From Bacteroidaceae bacterium (lineage in GTDB: Bacteria; Bacteroidota; Bacteroidia; Bacteroidales; Bacteroidaceae): DNA of 63,035 nt. A program made the position numbers and the translations under genes. The notes under the pieces were generated by a model that saw nothing but the letters and a program-made list of their open reading frames with translations, made no database searches and was not told where the DNA came from. The stretch is from NCBI GenBank assembly GCA_045599425.1, contig JAZRVZ010000167.1, forward strand, positions 1 to 63,035. Direction: 5' to 3'. Shown one piece after another: positions 38,314 to 52,424 of the stretch (the stretch's first letter is position 1; every line of letters begins with the position of its first letter).

Positions 38314-39135
38314 TTAGTTCTTCTTGATCAGGAAGAAGAGGGAAACGCAGGTCGTCACAACAGCCAGGATGCTGCTCCATGCAGACAGGCTCGTATAGAA
38401 TGAGCTTGACTTGACGCGCTTTGACTTGTTGGGCTCGACATAGATCATATCGTTCTGCTGGACGTAGTAGGCCGGGCTCGAGAAAATGTTGCTCTTGGTC
38501 ATGTCCAGAGGATACATCTTCAGCTCGCCGTTCTCTTCACGATAAAGTTTCACACGGTAGCGGAGACCGGTATCATCGATGTCGCTGCACTGGGCAAGGA
38601 CGTCTACGATGGTGTTGCGCTCACTGGTCAGGCTGACAACCCTGGGAGAATGAACGGCACCCACAACGGTCACGCGGGCATTCAGCAGACGTACCGTAAC
38701 CTCGGGGTCAGGAACAAGTCCTTTCTCCTTGATCTTGTTCTCAATGATGGTGGCACATTCCTCAACGGTGGTTCCGTCCACCCTGATATTGCCGATGGCA
38801 GGAAGAACCAGGTCGCCACCATTGGTCACGGTATAGCCGTAGGCATTGCTCATGGTTCCGGAGTTGTTCATGTTCATGTTCGTATTGGTGCCGGCCGTAC
38901 CCATGGTAAGATCCTGTGCAAAGATCTGCAGCAGCCTGGGCTCGCTGCAGGTAATCTTGATGAGAACCTGATCGGCAGGCTTCAGTCTCATCTCGTACTG
39001 CTGCATAATCTTCTGGGGAGTGGCAAACTGCTCCTCAGATCCCTGGAAATAGACAATCTTCTCTGTGCTGACGCAACTGGTCACTGCCATCATTGCAAGC
39101 ACTGCGATGGCCAATTTTGAAAATATCTTCTTCAT
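38314..39135 (-). CDS. wza: polysaccharide export protein, short Wza family (Poly_export + SLBB), orphan
   Basis: Lipobox AVTSC, the IVYFQG...Y.L.P.D.L.I motif, an SLBB-like segment and a C-terminal TM helix. There is no adjacent Wzc or Wzz. Confidence 0.75.
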   Translation of the reverse strand: MKKIFSKLAIAVLAMMAVTSCVSTEKIVYFQGSEEQFATPQKIMQQYEMRLKPADQVLIKITCSEPRLLQIFAQDLTMGTAGTNTNMNMNNSGTMSNAYGYTVTNGGDLVLPAIGNIRVDGTTVEECATIIENKIKEKGLVPDPEVTVRLLNARVTVVGAVHSPRVVSLTSERNTIVDVLAQCSDIDDTGLRYRVKLYREENGELKMYPLDMTKSNIFSSPAYYVQQNDMIYVEPNKSKRVKSSSFYTSLSAWSSILAVVTTCVSLFFLIKKN

Positions 39136-39416: not shown

Positions 39417-42400
39417 TTACTTAACCAGCACCTTCTTGCCATTGATGATGTACAGGCCGGGCTTAGCCAGGCTGTTGACACGCAGGCCGGTGATGGTGAA
39501 GATTGCCTTCTGGGCAGGTGCGGTCTCAATGCTCTCGATGGGAGTAGCGTCGCCGCTGAGTTCAGCCTGGCTTGCACCACCCAGGTACATCAGAGAGAAG
39601 TTGTCCACAACAACCCAGTCCTGACCGACAGCGTTAACCTTCTCGATACCCACGCGCAGGATGCCATCCTTGCCCACCTTGACGGTGATGCTGTTGTGGT
39701 AGAAGCCTGCCTTGAAGAAGTTGTCTGCGGTAGCCAGCTGATCAGCACCCTTGAACGAACCGCCGAAGGTAGAGTTACCGGGAGTGATGTCGATGCCCAG
39801 GACTGCGAGTGAATCCTCGTTCAGCTGAACAGAAGCGATGTTGTTGAGCTCGGTGGCATACTTGCCCTCAGAAGAGGTAGCATAGAGGTAAGCGTAAACC
39901 TGCTGCTCCTTCTCGCCATTCAGGATGGCGTAAGAGTCAGCGGTACCACCACCATGGCGCAGGAAGCCCTGGCATGACAGAACATAGGTACCCTCGGGCA
40001 GACCGGTCAGTTCCTGGTACATGTTGAATGCACCTGAGTTCCATACCTCACCACAGTTGCCAGGCTGGCCACCACCGGTACCGGGCTGCTTGCCCTTCCA
40101 CTCGGTGAAGTTGTGGTTCTGAACGGCACCGGGCTCCTCAACGTAGCCATCCTCGTCGGGCTCGTAGGTCATACCATCCACGTTGAACTGGGGATTCAGG
40201 ATCATGGCAGTGAAGTCAACGGGATTCTCGTCGCTGGCATTCTCCCAGCCCTTAGGCATTCTGATGAGAGCCAGTACCTCGTTGGCCTCCTGGATGAACT
40301 CCTCCATGGCCTTGTTGTCCAGGGTCAGGTATGCGGCATCACCCATGTTGACCTCCTCGATTACTTCCATTACCTTGTCATAGCGTGCCTTCAGGTCGGC
40401 GTCAGCCTCCTCGGCCTTCTCCCACATGTTGTTGGCAGTCTCATACAGGTCAGCAATCTTCTGCTGCAGCTCCATGTTCTTGGCAATCTCATTGTACTGG
40501 GCACGAAGCAGTTCCTTCATCTCCATGCACTCGTCCTCAGAGTGGCTCTTGATGTCCTTGATGAATGCCTGAACATCCTTGATCACCTTCTCAATGGTAT
40601 TGTACTCACCGTCGGTGATTGCCGAAGCGCTCATTCTGGCCTCCAGCTGAGCAATCTCGTCCTGCAGGGTAACAACCCATGCATCAGAGCCAGAACCCTC
40701 GTAAACCAGCTTGAAGTTATCGAAGATTACCCACTGGTGACCGTTGTCAACGCGTACACCGACAGTCAGGTTACCGGGCTCCTTCAGCTGGATGCTGAAC
40801 TTGTTGGTGTAGTCGTAGTTCTCACCGTCCTTCTTGTTCATGAAGTGCCATGCTGAGCCAGTCATTGAGTTGGGGCACCACAGACCGTTGGAGCCACTGG
40901 GATTGTTGTCGCTCATCCACTGAACCTCGCCAGCGTCGTTGACAACCTCGTAGAGCTTCTCCTCGGTACCGTAATCGGTAACGTTGGCAAATACCTGAAT
41001 CTTCTCGGTGCCGTCGGGCAGTACAGCGTAGAGCTCGGCAGGATTGTAACCTGCATCCTGAACGCGATAGAAGCCCTGTACGGAGAGGGTGTACAGACCT
41101 GCGGGTACATTATATACAGTCTGGTACATAGAGAACGCACTCATGAAGTTCTCGGCCAGACCATCCTCCTCATCGGGAGCCTCCTGGCAGAGCTCTGCGT
41201 TGTTGTTTACGCCATTGCCATAGTTTGAACCCCACCAGGGTGAGTTACCGGTAGTGCTCCAACCACTGAAGTTCTTGTTGAACTTGGGATTGTTCAGCAG
41301 GTAGGAAACATCGTCACCGGGCTGCATCTCACCATTGTACTTACCCTCGATCTCAGCCATGCCGGCGTAGATCATGTCAATCTCGGTGCGAGTCCACTCG
41401 CAAGCCTCGTAGGCCTCATTCAGACTGTCGTAGTAGTCCTCCAGCTCACCGGCCAGGTCGGGATTGGTCTCACGGTACTCCTCGATCTTCTCGTAAACAT
41501 CCTCCATGCGCTGTGCGAATACGCGGTAGTCGCTGATGGTAGCCTTCAGGGCGTTCATGGCGTTCTGGATAGAATCGCTCCACAGCTGGCAATCCTCGTC
41601 GCTCAGCTGAGCAGCCTCTGCCAGGGCAGTAACCTCCTCATAGAGAGCGTCATAGGCATCGATGACAGCCTGATTGCCATAGACGTTCAGCGAGCCGTAC
41701 TCCTCGTTCAAGGCAGCAACCTTGTCGCGCAGGGCGATCTGTGCGAGGGTCAGCTCGGTCTTGCCATAGTACTTCAGAGAGAAGTTGTCCATAGCCAGCC
41801 AGTTGATGGTCTTGTCGCTGTCGTAGCGGATACCGAAGGTGAATGCACCACCCTCAGTGGTGAAGGACAGCTCGAAGTGCTCGGGAGCGTTGTTGCCGGT
41901 GGCAACGGGAATCTCGTAGCTCTCGCCGGTAGCGGGGCAGTTGGCGAACAGATATACACCCTTGGAGTCTGCCTTGCTGCCCTGCTGACGGGTTGCAATC
42001 ATGTCCACACCCAGGATATACAGACCCTCGGGCAGGCCTACGGTCTGCTGTGCGTAGCCGGAACCGTTCAGCTGGGGATCCCAGGTCCAGGTCTCCAGGA
42101 AGTTCTGGATGGTTACGCCGTTGCTGCTGTAGGATGCGCTCTGAACCTGGTTGTTTACGCCAGTGAGGGAAATAGTCCAACCGTCGTAGGTGCCATCAGA
42201 GAAGTCTGAGTTGAGGGCGATACCCATCTCGAAGAGGTCGATGGGGTCCTCGGCGGTAGCACCCTCCAGCAGGTCTGCGTTCTGGGCAACCTTCAGCCAA
42301 CCTACGGCCTTCATGATCTCAGCGTATGCAGCATTCAGCTGCTCAATGGTGGCACTGGGATCGTCGTAAACCTTCTGGGCCTTGTCGCAGGCAGCCTTTA

Positions 42401-43217
42401 CGGTGGGCTCGCTCTCGTAGTAGTCAACGCCAGACATGCCCTCGATGTCTACGTCCAGCCAGAACCAGTTGTAGAACTGCATCCTTGCGTTGTAGAGGGT
42501 AGCATCGTACAGGGTCCAGGTGGTATATGCCTCGTTGCCGTACGCATACCTGGGAGTCTTGCCGGTGATCTCTTCCGTGATAGGATCAATGACGTCAACG
42601 CTGTCCACAATGACGGAACCGTAGAAGTACAGACGGCTGTCGAAGCCATAGTCGTCATGGATACCCTGGCTGTAGTCATCGGGAGCATTGTCGTAGGTGG
42701 CCAGGATGTACTCCTGAGCCTCGTTGTTCCAGATCATGTTGGAGGGAACCATACCGAACTTACCGCCGGGAGCAAAGGCGTTGGTCAGCTCGATCTTGCC
42801 ACCACCCAGGTCTGTCAGACCCCATGCGTGGTCACCCTGGCGATTCTGGCCGTCAACCCATGCCTTCTTGGCACCGTCGCAGTCCACGGCGTTCCAGTTG
42901 CCGTTGATCAGGTCCTGGAACCTAACGCCTTCCTTTTCCACTTCCACTCCGGTCTCGTCCTTGATCTTGTAGGTCGAGACAGCGAAGCGTACCTGACGGG
43001 CCTCTTCCTTGGTGTCCTTTGCAGAAGCGCGGGTACCCCAGTTGTTGCCCTGACCATAGAAGTACTCATCACCCTCTGAATTGGTTACAGAGAGGTAGTA
43101 CACCGTGGTGCCGTCGATCTTGACGCTGGTTGCCTTGGTCAGTTCGGGCTCGTCGAACTGTGCCCAGGAGGCTGCAGACACCAAAATCGCGCTCAAAAGA
43201 GTAAATAGCTTTCTCAT
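39417..43217 (-). CDS. giant secreted protein C (1266 aa) with T9SS C-terminal sorting domain; paralogue family member
   Basis: Signal peptide ..AASWA|QFD and an N-terminal WG-repeat domain. Modules end in DNFSLKYYG (alpha), DNFKLVYEG (beta) and DNFSLMYLGG (beta). The tail is IFTITGLRVNSLAKPGLYIINGKKVLVK. Confidence 0.85.
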   Translation of the reverse strand: MRKLFTLLSAILVSAASWAQFDEPELTKATSVKIDGTTVYYLSVTNSEGDEYFYGQGNNWGTRASAKDTKEEARQVRFAVSTYKIKDETGVEVEKEGVRFQDLINGNWNAVDCDGAKKAWVDGQNRQGDHAWGLTDLGGGKIELTNAFAPGGKFGMVPSNMIWNNEAQEYILATYDNAPDDYSQGIHDDYGFDSRLYFYGSVIVDSVDVIDPITEEITGKTPRYAYGNEAYTTWTLYDATLYNARMQFYNWFWLDVDIEGMSGVDYYESEPTVKAACDKAQKVYDDPSATIEQLNAAYAEIMKAVGWLKVAQNADLLEGATAEDPIDLFEMGIALNSDFSDGTYDGWTISLTGVNNQVQSASYSSNGVTIQNFLETWTWDPQLNGSGYAQQTVGLPEGLYILGVDMIATRQQGSKADSKGVYLFANCPATGESYEIPVATGNNAPEHFELSFTTEGGAFTFGIRYDSDKTINWLAMDNFSLKYYGKTELTLAQIALRDKVAALNEEYGSLNVYGNQAVIDAYDALYEEVTALAEAAQLSDEDCQLWSDSIQNAMNALKATISDYRVFAQRMEDVYEKIEEYRETNPDLAGELEDYYDSLNEAYEACEWTRTEIDMIYAGMAEIEGKYNGEMQPGDDVSYLLNNPKFNKNFSGWSTTGNSPWWGSNYGNGVNNNAELCQEAPDEEDGLAENFMSAFSMYQTVYNVPAGLYTLSVQGFYRVQDAGYNPAELYAVLPDGTEKIQVFANVTDYGTEEKLYEVVNDAGEVQWMSDNNPSGSNGLWCPNSMTGSAWHFMNKKDGENYDYTNKFSIQLKEPGNLTVGVRVDNGHQWVIFDNFKLVYEGSGSDAWVVTLQDEIAQLEARMSASAITDGEYNTIEKVIKDVQAFIKDIKSHSEDECMEMKELLRAQYNEIAKNMELQQKIADLYETANNMWEKAEEADADLKARYDKVMEVIEEVNMGDAAYLTLDNKAMEEFIQEANEVLALIRMPKGWENASDENPVDFTAMILNPQFNVDGMTYEPDEDGYVEEPGAVQNHNFTEWKGKQPGTGGGQPGNCGEVWNSGAFNMYQELTGLPEGTYVLSCQGFLRHGGGTADSYAILNGEKEQQVYAYLYATSSEGKYATELNNIASVQLNEDSLAVLGIDITPGNSTFGGSFKGADQLATADNFFKAGFYHNSITVKVGKDGILRVGIEKVNAVGQDWVVVDNFSLMYLGGASQAELSGDATPIESIETAPAQKAIFTITGLRVNSLAKPGLYIINGKKVLVK

Positions 43218-43513: not shown

Positions 43514-46500
43514 TTACTTAACCAGCACCTTCTTGCCATTGATGATGTACAGGCCAGCCTTGTTCAGGTTGCTTACGCGTACACCGGTGATGGTATAGAT
43601 GTTCCTGGCAGCCTCGGTGGCAATGCCGTTGATGGCATCAACCGTACCGTTCTCGCCCAGGGCACTGTTGGTACCGTAGGCGGTCAGGGTGAAGTTGTCG
43701 GCTGCCAGCCAGTTGGCGGTGGTAGTCTCAGAGCAGTTGATACCCAGGCGAACGAGGGTCTTGTCCTCAGCCACCTTGAATACCAGTTCGAAGTGCTCGG
43801 GAGCACCGTTGCCGGTTGCTACCTCCATGTGGCTGCCGCCAGCGAAGAGGAAGCAGTCCTTGGTGTCCTGCTTGCTGCCACCCTGCCAGGTAGCGATGAT
43901 GTCAGCACCCAGCTTGTAGGTACCGGCGGGAAGCAGGATCTCCTGGTAGATGTTACCCAGGATGGGAGAGTTGCCGCTGCGCCATACCTCGATGAACTGG
44001 TTACACTCGGGAGTGTAAGGTGCACCGTTCAGCTCGGTCTCAGCACCGGTGTAGGCGCTGTTGGCCTGATAGCCCTTGTTGGTGTAGGTGGTCAGGTCGA
44101 GCGTCCAGCCGTTGGCGGTACCGTCAGACATGTCGGGGTTAACCAGGAACTCGGTCAGCTCAGCGGGATCCTTGTCGTCCGCACCGGCTACAGCCTCGGC
44201 AATCCTGGTATACTTGTCCTCCTGCTGCCAGGTGGTGTAGGCCTTGTCCACCTTCTCGATGAAGGCGTTGATCTCGTCGATGTATGCACTCAGCTCCTCG
44301 GTGGTCAGCTCCAGGTACTTCTGGTCCTCGATGTCGTTGTAGTACTTGTTGCACTCATCCAGCAGGGCATCGTCGCTCATCTCCTCGCACTTGTTGTTGG
44401 CATCGCCGCCCAGCTTGGTGTAGACGGGCTCAATGCCAGCCACAACCTTGGCGTTCTCCTGGGCAGCAGCGTATGCAGCGTTCAGGTCAATCAGGGCCTG
44501 GTACATGGCGTCACCATCAGTGCCGTTCATGGCATCCTGTGCCTCAGCGATGGCGTTGGCCAGGGCAGATGCAGCGGGATCGGTCAGGTTCTCGTCCTTG
44601 TTGGCATCGTAGTACTCCTCGATACCGGGCAGTACAACCGACAGTACGTTGCTGACAGCCTTGGCGCTCTTGCCCTCGTAGACGAGCTTGAACTTGGCCC
44701 AGAGTACCCAGTGTGCCTTCTGACCGTTGGAGGTCAGACCAATGGTCATCTTGCCGCCCTCAACAAGGCCGTAGACGGTCTGGTAGTAGCGCTCGGCAGC
44801 GAAGGCGTATGAAGCACCGTCAACTGAGTTGGGAACCCAGCCGTAGCCCTCTACGTTGTAGTCATAGGGCCATGCACCGGTCTCCTCGGTGATGTAGCAG
44901 TTAACCTTGTCCTCAGCCTGATCCTCGGGCATGGCATCCTTGCAGATGTTCTGTACGGGGGTCTTGAAGTCGTTCATGAACAGGAATACCTTGGAAGCCT
45001 CGGTACCGTCGAAGCTGCCGTTGCCGGCAGGACGCTCGAAGGCCTGGCAGGTCAGGGCATAGATACCATCGGGTACACCCTCAACAACCTGCTGTACGTC
45101 AACTACATTGTCATAAACCTCCACGTTCTTGCAGATGTCCAGACCGCAGTTCTGGTTGCCGACGGGAGTCGCACCCTTGGAGTTGGTCCAGTAGTTGAAG
45201 CCCTCTGCGAAGCTGGGGTTCTTCAGCATGTCGGTGCAGTCGTCGCCCTCGTTGATGCTGGCCTTTACGGCAGCCTCGAACATGTCCTCGAGCTCAACTG
45301 CCTTGGCAGCGATCTCCTCGCCGGTCAGCTCACCGGGCTTCAGGGTGTTCTCCTCCTCTGCGAGGACGAGGTCAACGAACTCATCCCACAGGTCGCCGTT
45401 GTAGTCATACTCGCCGCTGTTGATGCCCTCGACATACTTGTCAACCAGGGCCTTGTAGGCGTTGTATGAGTTGATGCTGGCCAGGGCACGCTGGGTAACC
45501 TCGGTCATGGCCATGGTGTTCTTGTGGATCTCCTCGGGAGTGGTAGCCTCGCGGGCAGCCTGGAGGGCAGCCTGGAAGTTGGCAATCTCAGCGCGGCAGT
45601 AGTAGGTGTCCTCGGTGATGAAGTCCTGCAGGTCGCCGGCGATGGTGGCAATCACGTCCTCGCTCCACATCTTGTAGGCATCCAGGGCACCGCCGTAGTA
45701 GGTCAGGCGCCAGGTGTCGGTGATGGTCCAGTTGTCAGTCTGTGAGTTGTCCTTCTTCACTACACCGATCTTCAGCTTGCCGTCCATGACGGGCAGCATG
45801 ATGGTGTTGTCCATGTCGATACCGGCATTCTCGAAGCGGACGAAGTCCTGCATGGAGTTGGGAGCGTAGTAGTTCTCACCGATGACAGCGCCACCCAGGT
45901 CGGTACGGTCGGTAGATACGGATGACAGTGAACGGATGTTCACATTCAGGCTGTCCTCGCCGCTAACGGCATACAGCTTGGCATGACGGTAGCTGGGATC
46001 ATCCTTGGTGTTCCAGTCGTTGGCAATGGAACCGGCGCGGTAGAAGGCGTTCACGTTGACGCGGTAGATACCGGCGGGCAGACCCTCGATAACCTGCCAT
46101 GTGTCATAGTCCATATTGAAGCGCTCACCGCACTCGTCGGTGGCACCGCCGGCGCCGAAGCTTGAGCCCTTCCAGCCGTCGAACTTGATGCCGTCGAAGT
46201 TGGGGTTGACGATTGAGCTGGTCATGTCCTGAGGATTGTCCACGCTGGCCTGAGCCTTCTTCCAGTCGTTGATCTTCTGGTTTACGGACTCGGCGGCTGC
46301 GTTCAGCTCATCCGCGCTGCTGTCGGCGTTCTTGTAGACAGCGGTCTCGGCGGCAGTGTCCAGACCGGCACACTCGGCAGCGTTCTTCAGGGCAGTTGCC
46401 AGCAGGGCCGAGGCATCCAGGGCGGGCTTCACTGCATCCCACTTGGCCTTCCAGCTGTTGTACTCCTCCTGGCTTACGAAGGCCCAATCCAGACCGGCAC

Positions 46501-47038
46501 CCTCCTTGTCAGCGGGGATGTTGGCATCGATGATGGTGGATGCACCGCTCCAGCCGAAGAAGGTGGTCTCGTAGTTGTCATAGGTGTCTGCACCCCACTT
46601 GTCGTCGTTGGCAGCGCTGCGGATGCGGTAGTACTGGCCGTTCTTGGTGATGTTCCAGTACTCGTGACCCTGAGTGCCCATGTCGATGAAGCAGCCAGCC
46701 TCGTTGTCACGGAACAGGTACTTGCCAGCCTTTTCACCGCTTGAGGTCTTCAGGGAGTAGCCACCAGCGGTCTCGTCATAGGTTACTACGTACAGCAGAC
46801 CCTCGGGCAGAATGGAGGTCTGGGTGCCCCATGCGTTTGAACCGCACAGGAAGGCATTACCCTCCACGTTGTAGATGTAGACTGAGTCGGGAGCCTGGGG
46901 AGGATCCAACTCGGAAACGTCTGCGCCCTTCAGATTCTCCAACTCAAGGAAGCTGGTTGGCTTCGGAGCCTGGATCTGAGCGAAGACACCCATCGTTGCA
47001 CATGCAACGCTGAGCAGAGTGAGTAATCTTTTCTTCAT
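43514..47038 (-). CDS. giant secreted protein D (1174 aa) with T9SS C-terminal sorting domain; paralogue family member
   Basis: Signal peptide ..MGVFA|QIQ and an N-terminal WG-repeat domain. Modules end in TWRLTYYGG (beta), KFKLVYEGK (beta) and DNFTLTAYG (alpha). The tail is IYTITGVRVSNLNKAGLYIINGKKVLVK. Confidence 0.85.
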   Translation of the reverse strand: MKKRLLTLLSVACATMGVFAQIQAPKPTSFLELENLKGADVSELDPPQAPDSVYIYNVEGNAFLCGSNAWGTQTSILPEGLLYVVTYDETAGGYSLKTSSGEKAGKYLFRDNEAGCFIDMGTQGHEYWNITKNGQYYRIRSAANDDKWGADTYDNYETTFFGWSGASTIIDANIPADKEGAGLDWAFVSQEEYNSWKAKWDAVKPALDASALLATALKNAAECAGLDTAAETAVYKNADSSADELNAAAESVNQKINDWKKAQASVDNPQDMTSSIVNPNFDGIKFDGWKGSSFGAGGATDECGERFNMDYDTWQVIEGLPAGIYRVNVNAFYRAGSIANDWNTKDDPSYRHAKLYAVSGEDSLNVNIRSLSSVSTDRTDLGGAVIGENYYAPNSMQDFVRFENAGIDMDNTIMLPVMDGKLKIGVVKKDNSQTDNWTITDTWRLTYYGGALDAYKMWSEDVIATIAGDLQDFITEDTYYCRAEIANFQAALQAAREATTPEEIHKNTMAMTEVTQRALASINSYNAYKALVDKYVEGINSGEYDYNGDLWDEFVDLVLAEEENTLKPGELTGEEIAAKAVELEDMFEAAVKASINEGDDCTDMLKNPSFAEGFNYWTNSKGATPVGNQNCGLDICKNVEVYDNVVDVQQVVEGVPDGIYALTCQAFERPAGNGSFDGTEASKVFLFMNDFKTPVQNICKDAMPEDQAEDKVNCYITEETGAWPYDYNVEGYGWVPNSVDGASYAFAAERYYQTVYGLVEGGKMTIGLTSNGQKAHWVLWAKFKLVYEGKSAKAVSNVLSVVLPGIEEYYDANKDENLTDPAASALANAIAEAQDAMNGTDGDAMYQALIDLNAAYAAAQENAKVVAGIEPVYTKLGGDANNKCEEMSDDALLDECNKYYNDIEDQKYLELTTEELSAYIDEINAFIEKVDKAYTTWQQEDKYTRIAEAVAGADDKDPAELTEFLVNPDMSDGTANGWTLDLTTYTNKGYQANSAYTGAETELNGAPYTPECNQFIEVWRSGNSPILGNIYQEILLPAGTYKLGADIIATWQGGSKQDTKDCFLFAGGSHMEVATGNGAPEHFELVFKVAEDKTLVRLGINCSETTTANWLAADNFTLTAYGTNSALGENGTVDAINGIATEAARNIYTITGVRVSNLNKAGLYIINGKKVLVK

Positions 47039-49164: not shown

Positions 49165-49195
49165 GCCCGAAAGTTTTGTGCTTTCGGGCTTTTTT
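49165..49195 (+). terminator. intrinsic terminator after htrA
   Basis: GCCCGAAAG-ttttgtg-CTTTCGGGC followed by T6. Confidence 0.75.
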
Positions 49196-49228: not shown

Positions 49229-50089
49229 ATGAGACAATTAAAGATTACCAAGAGTATCACCAACCGCGAGAGTGCCTCGCTGGACAAGTATCTGCAGGAA
49301 ATCGGTCGTGAGGAACTGATCACCGTGGAGGAGGAGGTTGAGCTGGCACAGCGCATCCGCAAGGGTGATCGCGAGGCCCTGGAGCGCCTGACGCGTGCCA
49401 ATCTGCGCTTCGTGGTCAGTGTGGCCAAGCAATACCAGAACCAGGGACTCAGTCTGCCGGACCTGATCAACGAGGGTAACCTCGGACTGATCAAGGCTGC
49501 GGAGAAGTTTGACGAGACCCGCGGCTTCAAGTTTATCTCATACGCGGTATGGTGGATCCGCCAGAGCATCCTGCAGGCCCTGGCCGAGCAGAGCCGTATC
49601 GTCCGTCTGCCTCTGAACCAGGTAGGTTCGCTGTACAAGATCAGCAAGGCGCTGAGCAAGTTTGAGCAGGAGAACGAGCGTCGTCCCAGTCCCGAGGAGC
49701 TGGCCATGGAGCTGGATCTGCCCGTGGACAAGGTAAGCGATACGCTGAAGGTCAGCGGCCGTCACATCTCCGTGGATGCCCCCTTCGTGGAGGGTGAGGA
49801 CAACAGTCTGCTGGATGTGCTGGTCAACGATGACAGTCCCATGGCGGACAGGACCCTGGTGGGCGAGTCGCTGCACCGTGAGATCGACCGTGCGCTGAGT
49901 ACCCTGAGCGAGCGTGAGAAGGAGATCATCCAGATGTTCTTCGGCATCGACCATCAGGAGATGACGCTGGAGGAGATCGGCGACCGCTTCAATCTGACCC
50001 GTGAGCGTGTACGTCAGATCAAGGAGAAGGCCATCCGCCGTCTGCGCCAGAACAGCAAGAGCAAACTGCTGAAGACCTACCTGGGATAG
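49229..50089 (+). CDS. rpoD: primary RNA polymerase sigma factor (Bacteroidota sigma-A, short RpoD)
   Basis: [15 protein letters not shown].., region 2 ([52 protein letters not shown]) and region 4 ([12 protein letters not shown]...[21 protein letters not shown]). Confidence 0.92.
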
Positions 50090-50092
50090 TAT

Positions 50093-50623
50093 ATGAAGAG
50101 ATTGCTAAGATATATCTGTCTGCTGCTGTTTGTTGCAGTGGCGGCGGAAGCCAGCGCGGAGAAGAAGCCCGTGATGCAGAAGGTGTATATGTTTGGCTTC
50201 GCCTCTTCCTTCACCGACTCCCTGGCCTATCTGACGGAGGTGCAGGAACTGGATTCGGTCTGCGTCATGCCCAATGGCTTCCTGGCCGACAGGTCGCTGT
50301 ACAGCCTGCAGCTGTATGGATTCGTCAATGAGCAGCGTGGGGTGGCCTATCCCACGGCGGCCGTCTTCTTTGACGTCAAGTCCAAGAAGCTGGCCAAGAG
50401 GTACCAGAAGATCAAGCGCATGTACCAGGATAATCCCAACGTGAAACTGGTCGTGCTCACCAGGGAGGAGTTTGGCTTCCGCCCCGAGGAGTATATGGAA
50501 TCCATCGTGATGGAGGCTGACGGAGAGAATGGGGAAGGGGACACTCCGGAGAAGGAGGAGTCTGCTGACGGAAAGAAGAAGACTAAGAAGCAGAAGAAGG
50601 ACAAGAAAGGAGGCGGACGATGA
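50093..50623 (+). CDS. secreted protein with acidic/lysine-rich tail (176 aa), function unknown
   Basis: Signal peptide and a C-terminal DGENGEGDTPEKEESADGKKKTKKQKKDKKGGGR tail. It starts 3 nt after the rpoD stop, and its own stop overlaps the next gene's ATG (ATGA). Confidence 0.65.
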   Translation: MKRLLRYICLLLFVAVAAEASAEKKPVMQKVYMFGFASSFTDSLAYLTEVQELDSVCVMPNGFLADRSLYSLQLYGFVNEQRGVAYPTAAVFFDVKSKKLAKRYQKIKRMYQDNPNVKLVVLTREEFGFRPEEYMESIVMEADGENGEGDTPEKEESADGKKKTKKQKKDKKGGGR

Positions 50624-51510
50624 GCAGTGTGCTGCGTTGCCGGGTGGCCGGCCATGTGCTGGCCGTCGAGTTCTGTGATGCACACAATGATGCGTCCCTG
50701 CTGCCTTCCTTCAGACCGTTTGAACTGACGGCCGAGGAGGTGGCAGAGCCTGTGCTTTCCGTGAGTGTGCGCGACGATTTTGATTTCGAGACCCTCGGAC
50801 GTGAGGTCGGTCAGTTTGACTGTGGCGGCTGCAACCATGGCGTGTATGTCCTGGAGGACGGTTCCTACCAGTTTGTGGTGAGTGACGTGGCAGGCCGGGT
50901 CTGCTCCCTGATGCAGGGAAATCCTGACTTCAGCCGTTGTGTGGTGGCCCTCAGGGGCGAGACTTTCAGCCAGCGCAACTTTGGCCTGAACAATGCCATG
51001 ATGATGGCATTTGCCTTCTGCTTTGCCACGCAGGGTACCCTGCTGGTTCATGCCAGCGTGATCCGCAAGGACGGTTACGGATACCTGATGACGGCTCCCA
51101 GCGGCACGGGCAAGAGTACCCATACCCACCTGTGGTACAAGAATATACCGGGATGCGACCTGATGAATGATGACAATCCCGTGGTGCGTGTGCTGGAGGA
51201 TGGCGAGGTGGTGATCTATGGCAGTCCATGGAGCGGCAAGACCCCCTGCTACCGTAACATTCAGGCTCCCGTGGGTGCCTTTGTGCGCATCCAGCAGCGT
51301 CCGCGCAATGAGATCCGCCGGATGTCTTCCATCGAGGCCTTCACCACGCTGTTGCCTGCCGTGAGCAGCATGAAGTGGGATTCCCGTGTGTACAAGGGCG
51401 TCTGCAGCACCATCAGTGCCGTGGTAGGCAGGGTGGGTGTGTATGAGCTGGGTTGCCTGCCTGATGCCGGTGCGGCCCATTTGTGCTATGAGACGGTAAG
51501 AAAGGTGTGA
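50620..51510 (+). CDS. HPr-kinase-related P-loop protein (HprK C-terminal-domain-like)
   Basis: LLVHASVIRKDGYGYLMTAPSGTGKSTHTHLW matches the HprK/PEPCK-like fold signature (HAS.V...G.G.L..G.SG.GKST). Confidence 0.7.
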   Translation: MSSVLRCRVAGHVLAVEFCDAHNDASLLPSFRPFELTAEEVAEPVLSVSVRDDFDFETLGREVGQFDCGGCNHGVYVLEDGSYQFVVSDVAGRVCSLMQGNPDFSRCVVALRGETFSQRNFGLNNAMMMAFAFCFATQGTLLVHASVIRKDGYGYLMTAPSGTGKSTHTHLWYKNIPGCDLMNDDNPVVRVLEDGEVVIYGSPWSGKTPCYRNIQAPVGAFVRIQQRPRNEIRRMSSIEAFTTLLPAVSSMKWDSRVYKGVCSTISAVVGRVGVYELGCLPDAGAAHLCYETVRKV

Positions 51511-51520
51511 GGGCAAGATA

Positions 51521-52051
51521 GTGAAGGAACTGGTCAAGCGTTTTCTGAGACTGATCTTTACGCCGTTGCGCAGGCACAAGCAGGCCCGTGACGGTGTGAT
51601 GGAGGCGACTCCGCGCAAGGAGTTTCCGAATGATGTGTTGCTGGGGCTGGTGAGCCGCGAGATTGCCGAAGGGCATAATGCCAAGATCATCGTCAAGGGC
51701 TTCAGTATGCGTCCCTTCCTGGAACATGAGCGCGACAAGGTGATCCTGGCTCCTGTCAGGGAACCGCTCAAGGTTGCGGATGCCGTGCTGGCCGAGATTG
51801 CGCCAGGCCATTATGTCCTCCATCGCATCATTGAGATTCAGGGAGAGCAGCTTACGCTGATGGGCGACGGAAATATCCGTGGAACGGAATCCTGCACGGT
51901 ACGGGATGTGCGCGGTGTGGTGACCCATTACATCCGTCCCAGGCGTACCCTGCTGGCAAGCGACAGGAAGCTGCAGCGCCGCATCCGCATCTGGAGGCGA
52001 CTGTTGCCTGTCAGGCGATACCTATTATTAATATATAAGAGTCTGGTTTAG
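51521..52051 (+). CDS. S24/S26-family peptidase with Ser-His (SipW/ER-type) dyad context
   Basis: KGFSMRPFL (the G.SM.P nucleophile motif) and YVLHRIIEI (VHRV-type general base instead of the Lys of LexA/SPase I). No N-terminal TM anchor. The start is GTG 51521 or ATG 51599. Confidence 0.6.
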   Translation: MKELVKRFLRLIFTPLRRHKQARDGVMEATPRKEFPNDVLLGLVSREIAEGHNAKIIVKGFSMRPFLEHERDKVILAPVREPLKVADAVLAEIAPGHYVLHRIIEIQGEQLTLMGDGNIRGTESCTVRDVRGVVTHYIRPRRTLLASDRKLQRRIRIWRRLLPVRRYLLLIYKSLV

Positions 52052-52157
52052 GACCGGCCGAAATAGGACCGGCCTAATGTGAACGACCAAATGTGACCGG
52101 CCGGGAGCGTATCGGCCGGGATAAGATAGAATGAATTAAGATAGATCAAAATAAGAC

Positions 52158-52424
52158 ATGAAGATCAAGAACGGTTTTGAGATGGTAGACCTTTGCGACG
52201 ATCACGTAATCGTGGCAACCGGTATGCAGAATATAGATTTCAGTAAGGTTATCAGCCTGAACGAGAGTGCGACCCTGATGTGGAAGGCCGTGGAAGGCAA
52301 GGAGTTCACTGTGGAGGATATGGCCAAGGCACTTACCGACGAGTACGAAGTGGATGAGGCTACCGCCCTGGCTGATGCCGGCAAGATTGCCCGGGAGTGG
52401 AAGGAAATCGGTCTGGTGGAGTAG
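52158..52424 (+). CDS. PqqD-family protein (RiPP recognition element-like)
   Basis: An 88-aa protein with ..LNESATLMWKAVEGKEFTVEDMAKALTDEYEVDEATALADAGKIAREWKEIGLV, the typical PqqD winged-helix pattern. Confidence 0.7.
   Translation: MKIKNGFEMVDLCDDHVIVATGMQNIDFSKVISLNESATLMWKAVEGKEFTVEDMAKALTDEYEVDEATALADAGKIAREWKEIGLVE

Follow-up and report, generated by a model that had tools for sequence, protein, structure and literature searches.

A 63,035-nucleotide stretch of a Bacteroidaceae genome (contig JAZRVZ010000167.1, assembly GCA_045599425.1; hereafter the window) carries four genes directly behind rpoD and on its strand, which we call A, B, C and D (Table 1). Taken from sequence and comparative analysis, genes B, C and D probably form the enzyme core of an LPP-type pathway for a ribosomally made peptide with post-translational modification (RiPP), in the reduced form of a Prevotellaceae/Bacteroidaceae lineage, the substrate most likely being a peptide with a YxxP leader that is encoded elsewhere. 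Gene B would be the kinase, gene C a soluble leader peptidase and gene D the PqqD-type RiPP recognition element (RRE). An earlier sequence-only reading had proposed that such a kinase, peptidase and recognition element make up a peptide-maturation set, and homology, predicted folds and gene linkage agree with it. The same reading called the type of system uncharacterised, which no longer holds: the gene set had been defined and reconstituted in Bacillota as LPP (PMC13381572). The functional reading was thus largely right and the system type was already known in another phylum; what is new is a form that lacks precursor and exporter and has a secreted partner.

The LPP (linear polyphosphorylated peptide) family was described by Popov et al. 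(Nat Commun 2026; PMC13381572, the source of all statements in this paragraph on the Bacillota systems). Conserved in it are LppS, an archaeal-type peptidase like signal peptidase I (SpI); LppB, a discrete RRE; LppK, the HprK-like kinase; LppN, the NTP transferase; and LppD, the MsbA-like exporter. The operon order is lppA-K-B-S-D-N, with the precursor gene lppA directly before the kinase gene. Precursors have 35-200 aa, the leader YxxPxVLxHQxIxFETxxS and variable C-termini. In a heterologous host LppK put up to four phosphates on core Ser3 and LppS removed the leader; unphosphorylated precursor was poorly cleaved. LppS depends on LppB for presentation of the leader; mutagenesis identified S29, H68 and D93 as the catalytic residues of LppS. 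LppB N33 and D70, which bind the proline kink and the tyrosine of the leader, are essential for leader binding. The authors regard LPPs as restricted to Bacillota and their role and final product as unknown. Only two rows of their dataset are from Bacteroidota, both SpI fusions to an ATP-binding cassette (ABC) protein, in cluster 8 of the sequence similarity network (SSN), which was not analysed there. In the LPP domain table the 'HprK kinase' is represented by TIGR04249 (67), TIGR04352 (65) and TIGR04355 (11), and once by Hpr_kinase_C; the peptidase is TIGR02228, the transferase NTP_transf_5 and the RRE PqqD. These are the models weakly matched by our genes B and C, and the same family as our neighbour cluster c1. 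LPP sequences used for comparison were taken from Supplementary Data 1 of that paper.

Gene D is the member with the clearest assignment. It matches Pfam PqqD at 56.4 bits (threshold 23.4). A search of the PDB with the single sequence gave only noise, but the family profile finds the lasso RRE TfuB1 (6jx3_B, E = 1.2e-5) and then a lasso PqqD chaperone (9x90_B). By hhalign, the gene D family aligns with an LPP RRE at E = 7e-8 and with the RRE of Dehalobacter (SSN cluster 4) at E = 7e-20. Two residues, N35 and D73, are invariant in the family, both where gene A is present (type-1 loci) and where the genes are linked to an exporter (type-2 loci), and they correspond to LppB N33 and D70. Gene D is therefore assigned, as a sequence-based prediction, to the discrete lasso/LPP-type RREs, as the counterpart of LppB and of lasso B1. 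In two type-1 loci from human-gut contigs (L099 8339-8644, L110 8689-8958) it follows the peptidase gene immediately but in the reverse orientation; gene D thus remains adjacent, but is not co-transcribed in every locus.

Gene C would supply the leader peptidase. Its long form of 176 aa is taken as real because homologues of 175-178 aa cover 100% of it; a 35-aa N-terminal extension is found in type-1 loci only. Among homologues that are 27-66% identical, S62 (in GxSMxP), H101-R102, G115-D116-G117-N118, E123 and W158 are invariant and no Lys is conserved, so that the general base is His, not Lys. No Pfam model matches gene C by itself, although Peptidase_S24 is matched by 15 of 18 and by 21 of 27 gene C homologues (best E = 2e-6), and its own score with TIGR02228 is 17.6 bits (cut-off 51.9). 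A narrow profile found nothing significant in the PDB. Only a broad family profile was informative; it pairs best with human SEC11A (E = 0.032), whose GSMEP and VHRV line up with the Ser and the His, and the other top matches are SEC11C, LexA and SPase I. The spacing from Ser to His is 39 residues, the same as between LppS S29 and H68, and hhalign pairs the gene C family with the SpI of LPP SSN cluster 1 (WP_113034598.1) at 96.5% probability and E = 8e-10. The RRE-linked SpI of Dehalobacter (E = 5e-24) and Ruminococcus (E = 2e-20), from SSN clusters 4 and 9, align with it still more strongly. RRE-associated SpI-like peptidases of Dehalobacter, Anaerocolumna and Ruminococcus in these two clusters, unstudied in PMC13381572, are closer to genes C and D of the window than the characterised LPP cluster 1 is.

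Two claims of the sequence-only reading about the peptidase, a Ser/His dyad of the ER/SipW type in place of Ser/Lys and the lack of a membrane anchor, both hold: no hydrophobic anchor is present in gene C. The likeness to the SipW/SEC11/archaeal type I signal peptidases (S26B) lies in the Ser of GxSMxP, the His of xHR(V/I) and the Asp of a GDxN box. Gene C differs from them in the missing anchor and in its fusion or coupling to a cytoplasmic ATP-dependent kinase; by homology, it would also depend on an RRE and cut leaders rather than Sec signal peptides. Its sequence thus predicts a soluble clan-SF (S24/S26) peptidase of the archaeal/ER signal-peptidase type, with Ser62/His101/Asp116, and the counterpart of LppS.

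Gene B is remote from curated models, and its assignment comes from fold and family. It has no match in our local copy of Pfam, yet every listed homologue has a precomputed match to Pfam PF27840 'ScmC'. The best NCBIfam matches are the three models that define the LPP 'HprK kinase', at 15-26 bits against cut-offs of 125-200: TIGR04352 HprK_rel_A 25.7 bits (cut-off 200), TIGR04249 ScmC 25.6 (125) and TIGR04355 15 (200). Where the earlier reading relied on model thresholds, its PqqD assignment passes; gene B stays below TIGR04352 and TIGR04355, and gene C has no Pfam match. A sequence-profile search of the PDB returned nothing significant for gene B. The AlphaFold2 (AF2) model (pLDDT 91.8, pTM 0.90) was matched by Foldseek to PEP carboxykinase (1oen, E = 1.1e-6, TMq 0.52) and to HPr kinase/phosphorylase (1knx, E = 1.4e-5), all at probability 1.0, which agrees with the HprK/PEPCK superfamily membership proposed before. 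Distant family members show sub-threshold matches to PEPCK_ATP and Hpr_kinase_C. Invariant motifs are the Walker A sequence APSGTGKST, LMNDDNP downstream of it, and GSPWSGKTPCY; the motifs reported from the sequence alone (HASVIRKDGYGYLMTAPSGTGKST in gene B, GFSMRP and LHRII in gene C) are present. From sequence and model, gene B is a predicted ScmC-family P-loop phosphotransferase of the PEPCK/HprK superfamily and the predicted counterpart of LppK.

Linkage of the genes was examined across relatives. A strict pattern scan with one genome per GTDB species found a gene B relative in at least 421 species-level genomes; the best 80 of the 421 relatives were all from Prevotellaceae or 'Bacteroidaceae' metagenome-assembled genomes of gut and rumen, the nearest being Prevotellaceae UBA1720 (84% identity). 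In all of the 85 related loci long enough to show it, A-B-C-D occur in the same order on the same strand, with median gaps of -4 nt both between A and B and between B and C. This arrangement is far from chance. B-C-D is kept in more than 150 loci, so that the co-occurrence outside this genome on which the sequence-only reading depended is wide.

Kinase and peptidase are also found as one protein. Of the 8,326 cluster representatives recovered at E<=1e-3 in an exhaustive profile search, 788 reached E<=1e-30. The best hits include at least 11 natural B-C fusions, mutually distant and counted as independent families, with lengths of 433-515 aa; one of the fusion clusters comprises 779 proteins, each of 491 aa. 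The fusions link the activities of kinase and peptidase and locate the latter in the cytoplasm, alongside an ATP-dependent enzyme.

The missing pathway components appear among more distant relatives. With a fusion alignment, 80 metagenome loci were retrieved at 31-50% identity; gene calls in them are heuristic, and the type-2 loci are metagenome contigs whose named members are Bacteroidales and Paludibacteraceae. Most of the 80 keep B-C-D, usually without gene A. In about 35 type-2 loci B-C-D is followed by an ABC exporter (ABC_membrane + ABC_tran), and 17-18 have an NTP_transf_5 nucleotidyltransferase. Gene A and these components exclude each other: among 36 loci with enough flank, gene A alone was found in 6, exporter and/or NTP transferase alone in 23, both in 0 and neither in 7.

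A small-ORF search of these loci revealed a family of same-strand open reading frames (ORFs) of 41-58 aa with the conserved N-terminus MKKMNKxYEAPxAEV(V/I)EL and a hypervariable C-terminus rich in Gly, Ser, Asp and Pro. Six lie directly after NTP_transf_5, one between genes C and D (L148) and one after the exporter (L091). The motif Y..P..[EQH][VIML][VIL][EVD][VILM] gave 9 hits, all on the module strand, and 0 in shuffled loci. The nine ORFs (41-60 aa) align in register, with 19 residues from the Tyr to the predicted cut site and a hydrophobic residue at -3; the nine candidate cores start with S, G or D and have a Ser within the first 8 residues. No NCBIfam model matches the candidates. Judged by sequence, eight candidate precursors are solid and the ninth is doubtful. 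This last one, a YxxP-like 60-aa ORF in the type-1 locus L040, overlaps the end of a gene for a secreted protein, carries a poorer motif than the other eight and is not seen again in other loci. The gene that it overlaps is the second of two in L040 (33-4445) for large secreted-looking proteins (751 and 647 aa) without a Pfam domain, which share a C-terminal segment of about 45 aa with proteins in other loci.

Further genes accompany some type-2 loci. In those of the NTP_transf_5 type (L086, L105, L112, L130, L137, L142) a conserved lipoprotein of about 330 aa, for which Pfam has no domain, comes after the candidate precursor, and a FadL/Toluene_X-like outer-membrane protein lies beyond it (e.g. 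L105 3161-4183, L137 11459-12823); the two may be an outer-membrane export or receptor pair. On sequence grounds, the best reading of the exporter-linked Bacteroidales loci is that they are LPP-type clusters of a phylum other than Bacillota, with a leader consensus of their own. Features in common with the Bacillota systems are NTP_transf_5, an ABC exporter like MsbA, and candidate precursors in which a YxxP leader precedes a variable core rich in Gly and Ser; the LPP leader is YxxPxVLxHQxIxFET with 16 residues to the cut, whereas the Bacteroidales candidates have YxxPxxE(V/I)(V/I)E(L/V/M) with 19 to the predicted cut. B-C fusions are a further difference on the Bacteroidales side.

The window itself resembles LPP in its SpI-like Ser/His/Asp leader peptidase with the 39-residue spacing, its discrete PqqD RRE with Asn and Asp and, probably, the HprK-like type of its kinase. 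It differs in lacking precursor, NTP transferase and exporter, in carrying the secreted orphan-fold gene A instead, in its host (Bacteroidota rather than Bacillota) and in its vertical, syntenic position near rpoD and htrA; LPP clusters of Bacilli are patchy and often embedded in capsule loci (PMC13381572).

From homology, predicted fold, the invariant catalytic and leader-binding residues, gene linkage and fusions, we infer the following chemistry and order of steps. Gene D would capture the precursor by its [Y/W]xxP leader, Asn35 fixing the proline kink and Asp73 hydrogen-bonding the tyrosine, by homology with the Paenibacillus system. It would present the precursor to the P-loop kinase, gene B, for ATP-dependent phosphorylation of a Ser near the start of the core. 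It would also present it to soluble gene C (Ser62/His101/Asp116), and the leader would be removed in the cytoplasm. A YxxP-leader peptide encoded elsewhere would be the most economical substrate because gene D keeps the YxxP-binding residues; comparison with Bacillota offers a precedent, since there the RRE and the precursor can sit elsewhere in the genome, away from the peptidase (PMC13381572).

Several observations weigh against this interpretation. No precursor ORF was found in either intergenic gap, as the sequence-only reading had stated, or elsewhere in the 63-kb window by HMM, strict regex, relaxed regex or permissive intergenic scan; the small-ORF survey that it had suggested was productive for type-2 relatives, in YxxP-leader precursor ORFs, but not for the window. 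The types of gene linked to relatives were searched for in the window as well: no ABC exporter, no NTP_transf_5 (hmmsearch E<=10) and no radical SAM homologue (c24 HMM) was found, and the absence of exporter and NTP transferase is to be counted here. The same holds for the 85 type-1 loci, in which no precursor, exporter or NTP transferase was found within 7 kb on either side, save the doubtful ORF of L040. Genes B and C are individually far below curated TIGRFAM/NCBIfam cut-offs. By profile score, the gene C and gene D families are nearer to the uncharacterised SSN clusters 4 and 9 than to LPP cluster 1. The module shows stable vertical inheritance beside housekeeping genes, unlike the patchy, horizontally transferred LPP clusters of Bacilli. 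Gene A, finally, is left unexplained by an LPP-type reading.

Three parts make up the gene A protein: a putative Sec-type signal peptide, an alpha/beta domain that is conserved and about 110 aa long, and an acidic/Lys-rich tail that varies. The signal peptide was called by eye (K/R n-region, hydrophobic core, ASA|E) together with a predicted N-terminal helix. In the AF2 model the alpha/beta core spans residues ~27-135 at pLDDT 94-98 and the tail is disordered. Gene A has no Pfam, NCBIfam or PADLOC match, its predicted fold has no match in the PDB (best E = 1.1), and a family search gave 52 homologues, none named, among which the tail differs in length or is missing. Wherever gene A occurs it lies directly upstream of gene B; it is a lineage-specific partner, translationally coupled to the kinase gene.

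Gene A could itself be the substrate, the machinery having been repurposed to phosphorylate and/or clip the Sec-exported protein before export, which would account for the absence of both a dedicated exporter and a small precursor. Its place directly upstream of the kinase gene, with the median 4-nt overlap, is that of lppA in lppAKBSDN; it occurs to the exclusion of ABC and NTP_transf_5 genes (6 loci vs 23, none with both); all gene A-linked kinases form one clade; and it brings its own export signal. LPP precursors reach 200 aa, and one LPP core is Lys/Asp-rich (PMC13381572), as the gene A tail is. The sequence-only reading had named the 176-aa protein or its tail as a possible substrate, and this did not pass either of two tests: only 12 of 65 gene A proteins contain [Y/W]xxP, at the sole conserved aromatic position near the tail, and the tail has 8 residues or fewer in 17 of the 65. 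The tail as an LPP-like leader plus core is rejected on these grounds. Moreover, what is conserved in gene A is a domain with a confidently predicted fold and not a leader, gene D retains residues for binding YxxP, and the signal peptide, classical by inspection, would take gene A out of the cytoplasm in which B, C and D reside. Gene A as a whole is a possible but doubtful substrate.

In a neighbour-joining tree of 150 distinct gene B sequences with midpoint rooting, sampled from two targeted scans, all 92 sequences linked to gene A fall into a single clade of their own. Diversity is greater among the exporter-linked ones (mean identity 0.44, vs 0.60 for A-linked and 0.36 between groups). The form in the window is thus a reduced, derived, monophyletic variant with at least 92 distinct sequences: one large Prevotellaceae/Bacteroidaceae lineage, to which the Prevotella-like organism of the window belongs, keeps only the kinase-peptidase-RRE core, strongly conserved, with the secreted protein A. 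These data bear on whether the locus is what is left of an LPP-type cluster that is decaying and has lost its function: of the six LPP components it lacks three, namely precursor, NTP transferase and exporter. Decay is very improbable, because all catalytic and binding residues are invariant and the ORFs are intact and overlap, with 4-nt overlaps conserved and a mean identity of 60% over the 92 distinct type-1 kinases.

The genes are packed in the window as had been described. The rpoD stop (50087-50089) is 3 nt from the gene A ATG (50093), the gene A stop and gene B start overlap as ATGA, and gaps of 10 nt and 106 nt separate B from C and C from D. The base composition of the locus is unremarkable. 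A strong intrinsic terminator separates htrA from rpoD; no terminator-like element comes after rpoD, leaving none between rpoD and gene A. This fits an rpoD-A-B-C(-D) transcript, of which the terminator likely marks the upstream end, and in this genome rpoD and the module probably share a transcript. A sigma-70 promoter scan was uninformative for Bacteroidota promoters. The C-D spacer contains three of the five GACCGGCC copies of the whole window and a hairpin with a fold z-score of -3.25. This element is specific to the window; genes C and D overlap or abut in most relatives.

Table 1. Positions of the module, its surroundings in the window and related features in other loci
Feature	Sequence	Position	Strand	Remarks
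Poly_export (Wza-like) polysaccharide export gene	window	38314-39135	-	~11 kb upstream of module
Long ORF upstream of htrA	window	39417-43217	-	1266 aa
Long ORF upstream of htrA	window	43514-47038	-	1174 aa
Intrinsic terminator between htrA and rpoD	window	49165-49189	+	10-bp stem (6 G-C pairs), then T-run
rpoD (primary sigma-70)	window	49230-50089	+	ATG at 49230; Sigma70 r1.2, r2, r3, r4 domains
Gene A	window	50093-50623	+	176 aa
Gene B	window	50620-51510	+	296 aa
Gene C	window	51521-52051	+	GTG start, 176 aa
C-D spacer element	window	52052-52119	+	three GACCGGCC copies, G+C-rich 8-bp hairpin without T-run
Gene D	window	52158-52424	+	88 aa
Candidate precursor	L086	9931-10080		
Candidate precursor	L105	2987-3115		
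Candidate precursor	L112	7701-7829		
Candidate precursor	L130	4456-4599		
Candidate precursor	L137	9852-9989		
Candidate precursor	L142	3971-4096		
Candidate precursor	L148	2270-2395		
Candidate precursor	L091	4598-4774		
B-C fusion, example	L088	6965-8329		
B-C fusion, example	L099	6923-8248		
B-C fusions	P0247, P0281, P0290, P0311, P0334, P0342, P0366, P0369, P0374, P0380, P0381			

The link to rpoD noted in the sequence-only reading exists here but is not obligatory. The gene is directly upstream of gene A in 28 of the 85 related loci; in the others htrA or unrelated genes precede gene A, e.g. a DPP-IV peptidase gene in L004. rpoD is context and lies outside the conserved module. Downstream genes for Gly_transporter, a type IX secretion system (T9SS) plug, AmiA-like, transglycosylase and OmpA proteins recur in either orientation, and they therefore reflect synteny and not an operon.

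Such surroundings raise the question of whether the trio was domesticated for a housekeeping or regulatory role in cell envelope or stress physiology, with no secreted natural product. The type-1 clade is monophyletic and syntenic near htrA, rpoD and T9SS plug, amidase, transglycosylase and OmpA-family genes; no terminator separates rpoD from gene A, the locus has no exporter, and even a strict pattern search finds the module in 421 species-level genomes or more. A functional cause need not lie behind the synteny, however, given the 28 of 85 loci with rpoD and the free orientation of the downstream genes; the residues for leader binding in gene D and for catalysis in B and C are all preserved, and no candidate housekeeping substrate was identified. 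We consider such a role improbable. A bolder version is possible but doubtful: LPP-type machinery domesticated in Prevotellaceae/Bacteroidaceae that has given up producing a small peptide for export, the trio phosphorylating and/or processing the co-translated, Sec-exported gene A protein or another envelope protein, as housekeeping maturation run from the primary sigma-factor operon.

Known RiPP systems other than LPP fit the window less well. The paeninodin and pseudomycoidin lasso clusters, a precedent for a kinase together with a nucleotidyltransferase, share an HprK-type kinase acting on a precursor Ser and a PqqD/B1 RRE for [Y/W]xxP (PMC8498205); NTP transferase and ABC exporter are shared only by the relatives of the window. 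The nearest solved relatives of gene D are lasso B1 proteins and gene B weakly matches TIGR04352, so that the locus had to be weighed as a cluster for a lasso peptide and, as the sequence-only reading proposed, as part of the TIGRFAM HPr-rel-A system (TIGR04352/TIGR04353/TIGR04354), which pairs an HprK-related kinase A with a PqqD_rel_X partner. An Asn-synthetase-like cyclase (C) or a transglutaminase-type cysteine protease (B2) was found neither in the window neighbourhood nor recurring among the neighbours of the 165 related loci; the same reading had noted that the window has no lasso cyclase and no radical SAM gene, and none was found. HPr-rel-A membership fails on the TIGR04352 score, far below its cut-off, and TIGR04353 is absent from the gene D matches at E<=0.1. 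Either assignment is hardly credible. In the window leader removal would fall to a serine SpI-like peptidase, and the product of an LPP-type pathway here would therefore be linear.

The SynChlorMet cassette (TIGR04248 ScmD, TIGR04249 ScmC, two radical SAM/SPASM proteins) is similar in pairing an ScmC protein, as gene B is by Pfam, with a PqqD protein. In the relatives L158 and L163 genes B and D even lie beside radical SAM/SPASM genes: directly upstream of the ScmC-like kinase gene are two of these in L158 (3730-7004) and one in L163 (1831-5433), with extra PqqD genes. The window differs in having a peptidase and no radical SAM gene, and its ScmC (25.6/125) and ScmD (gene D, 14.4 bits against a cut-off of 100) scores leave only the Pfam-level ScmC membership. 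We found nothing in the literature on PF27840 or SynChlorMet by name, and nothing relevant on PF14907; a 2023 survey of Bacteroidales RiPP clusters does not report the module. A defence-system reading is not supported, because PADLOC gave zero matches at the locus.

Two features of the window lie apart from the module. A Wza-like Poly_export gene is found about 11 kb upstream, and upstream of htrA are two very long ORFs without a Pfam match at E<=1e-5, which could be large uncharacterised proteins or spurious opposite-strand ORFs in G+C-rich DNA.

Our results indicate that LPP-type enzyme logic is widespread in gut and rumen Bacteroidales, against the restriction to Bacillota given in PMC13381572: this order holds complete sets of kinase, peptidase, RRE, NTP transferase, exporter and candidate precursor, as well as natural kinase-peptidase fusions. 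An uncurated family of candidate precursors is thereby supplied for genome mining, and there is now a testable way to approach what LPP-type systems do in abundant bacteria that live with hosts. The form found behind rpoD may, in addition, be an example of a RiPP pathway turned to another use.

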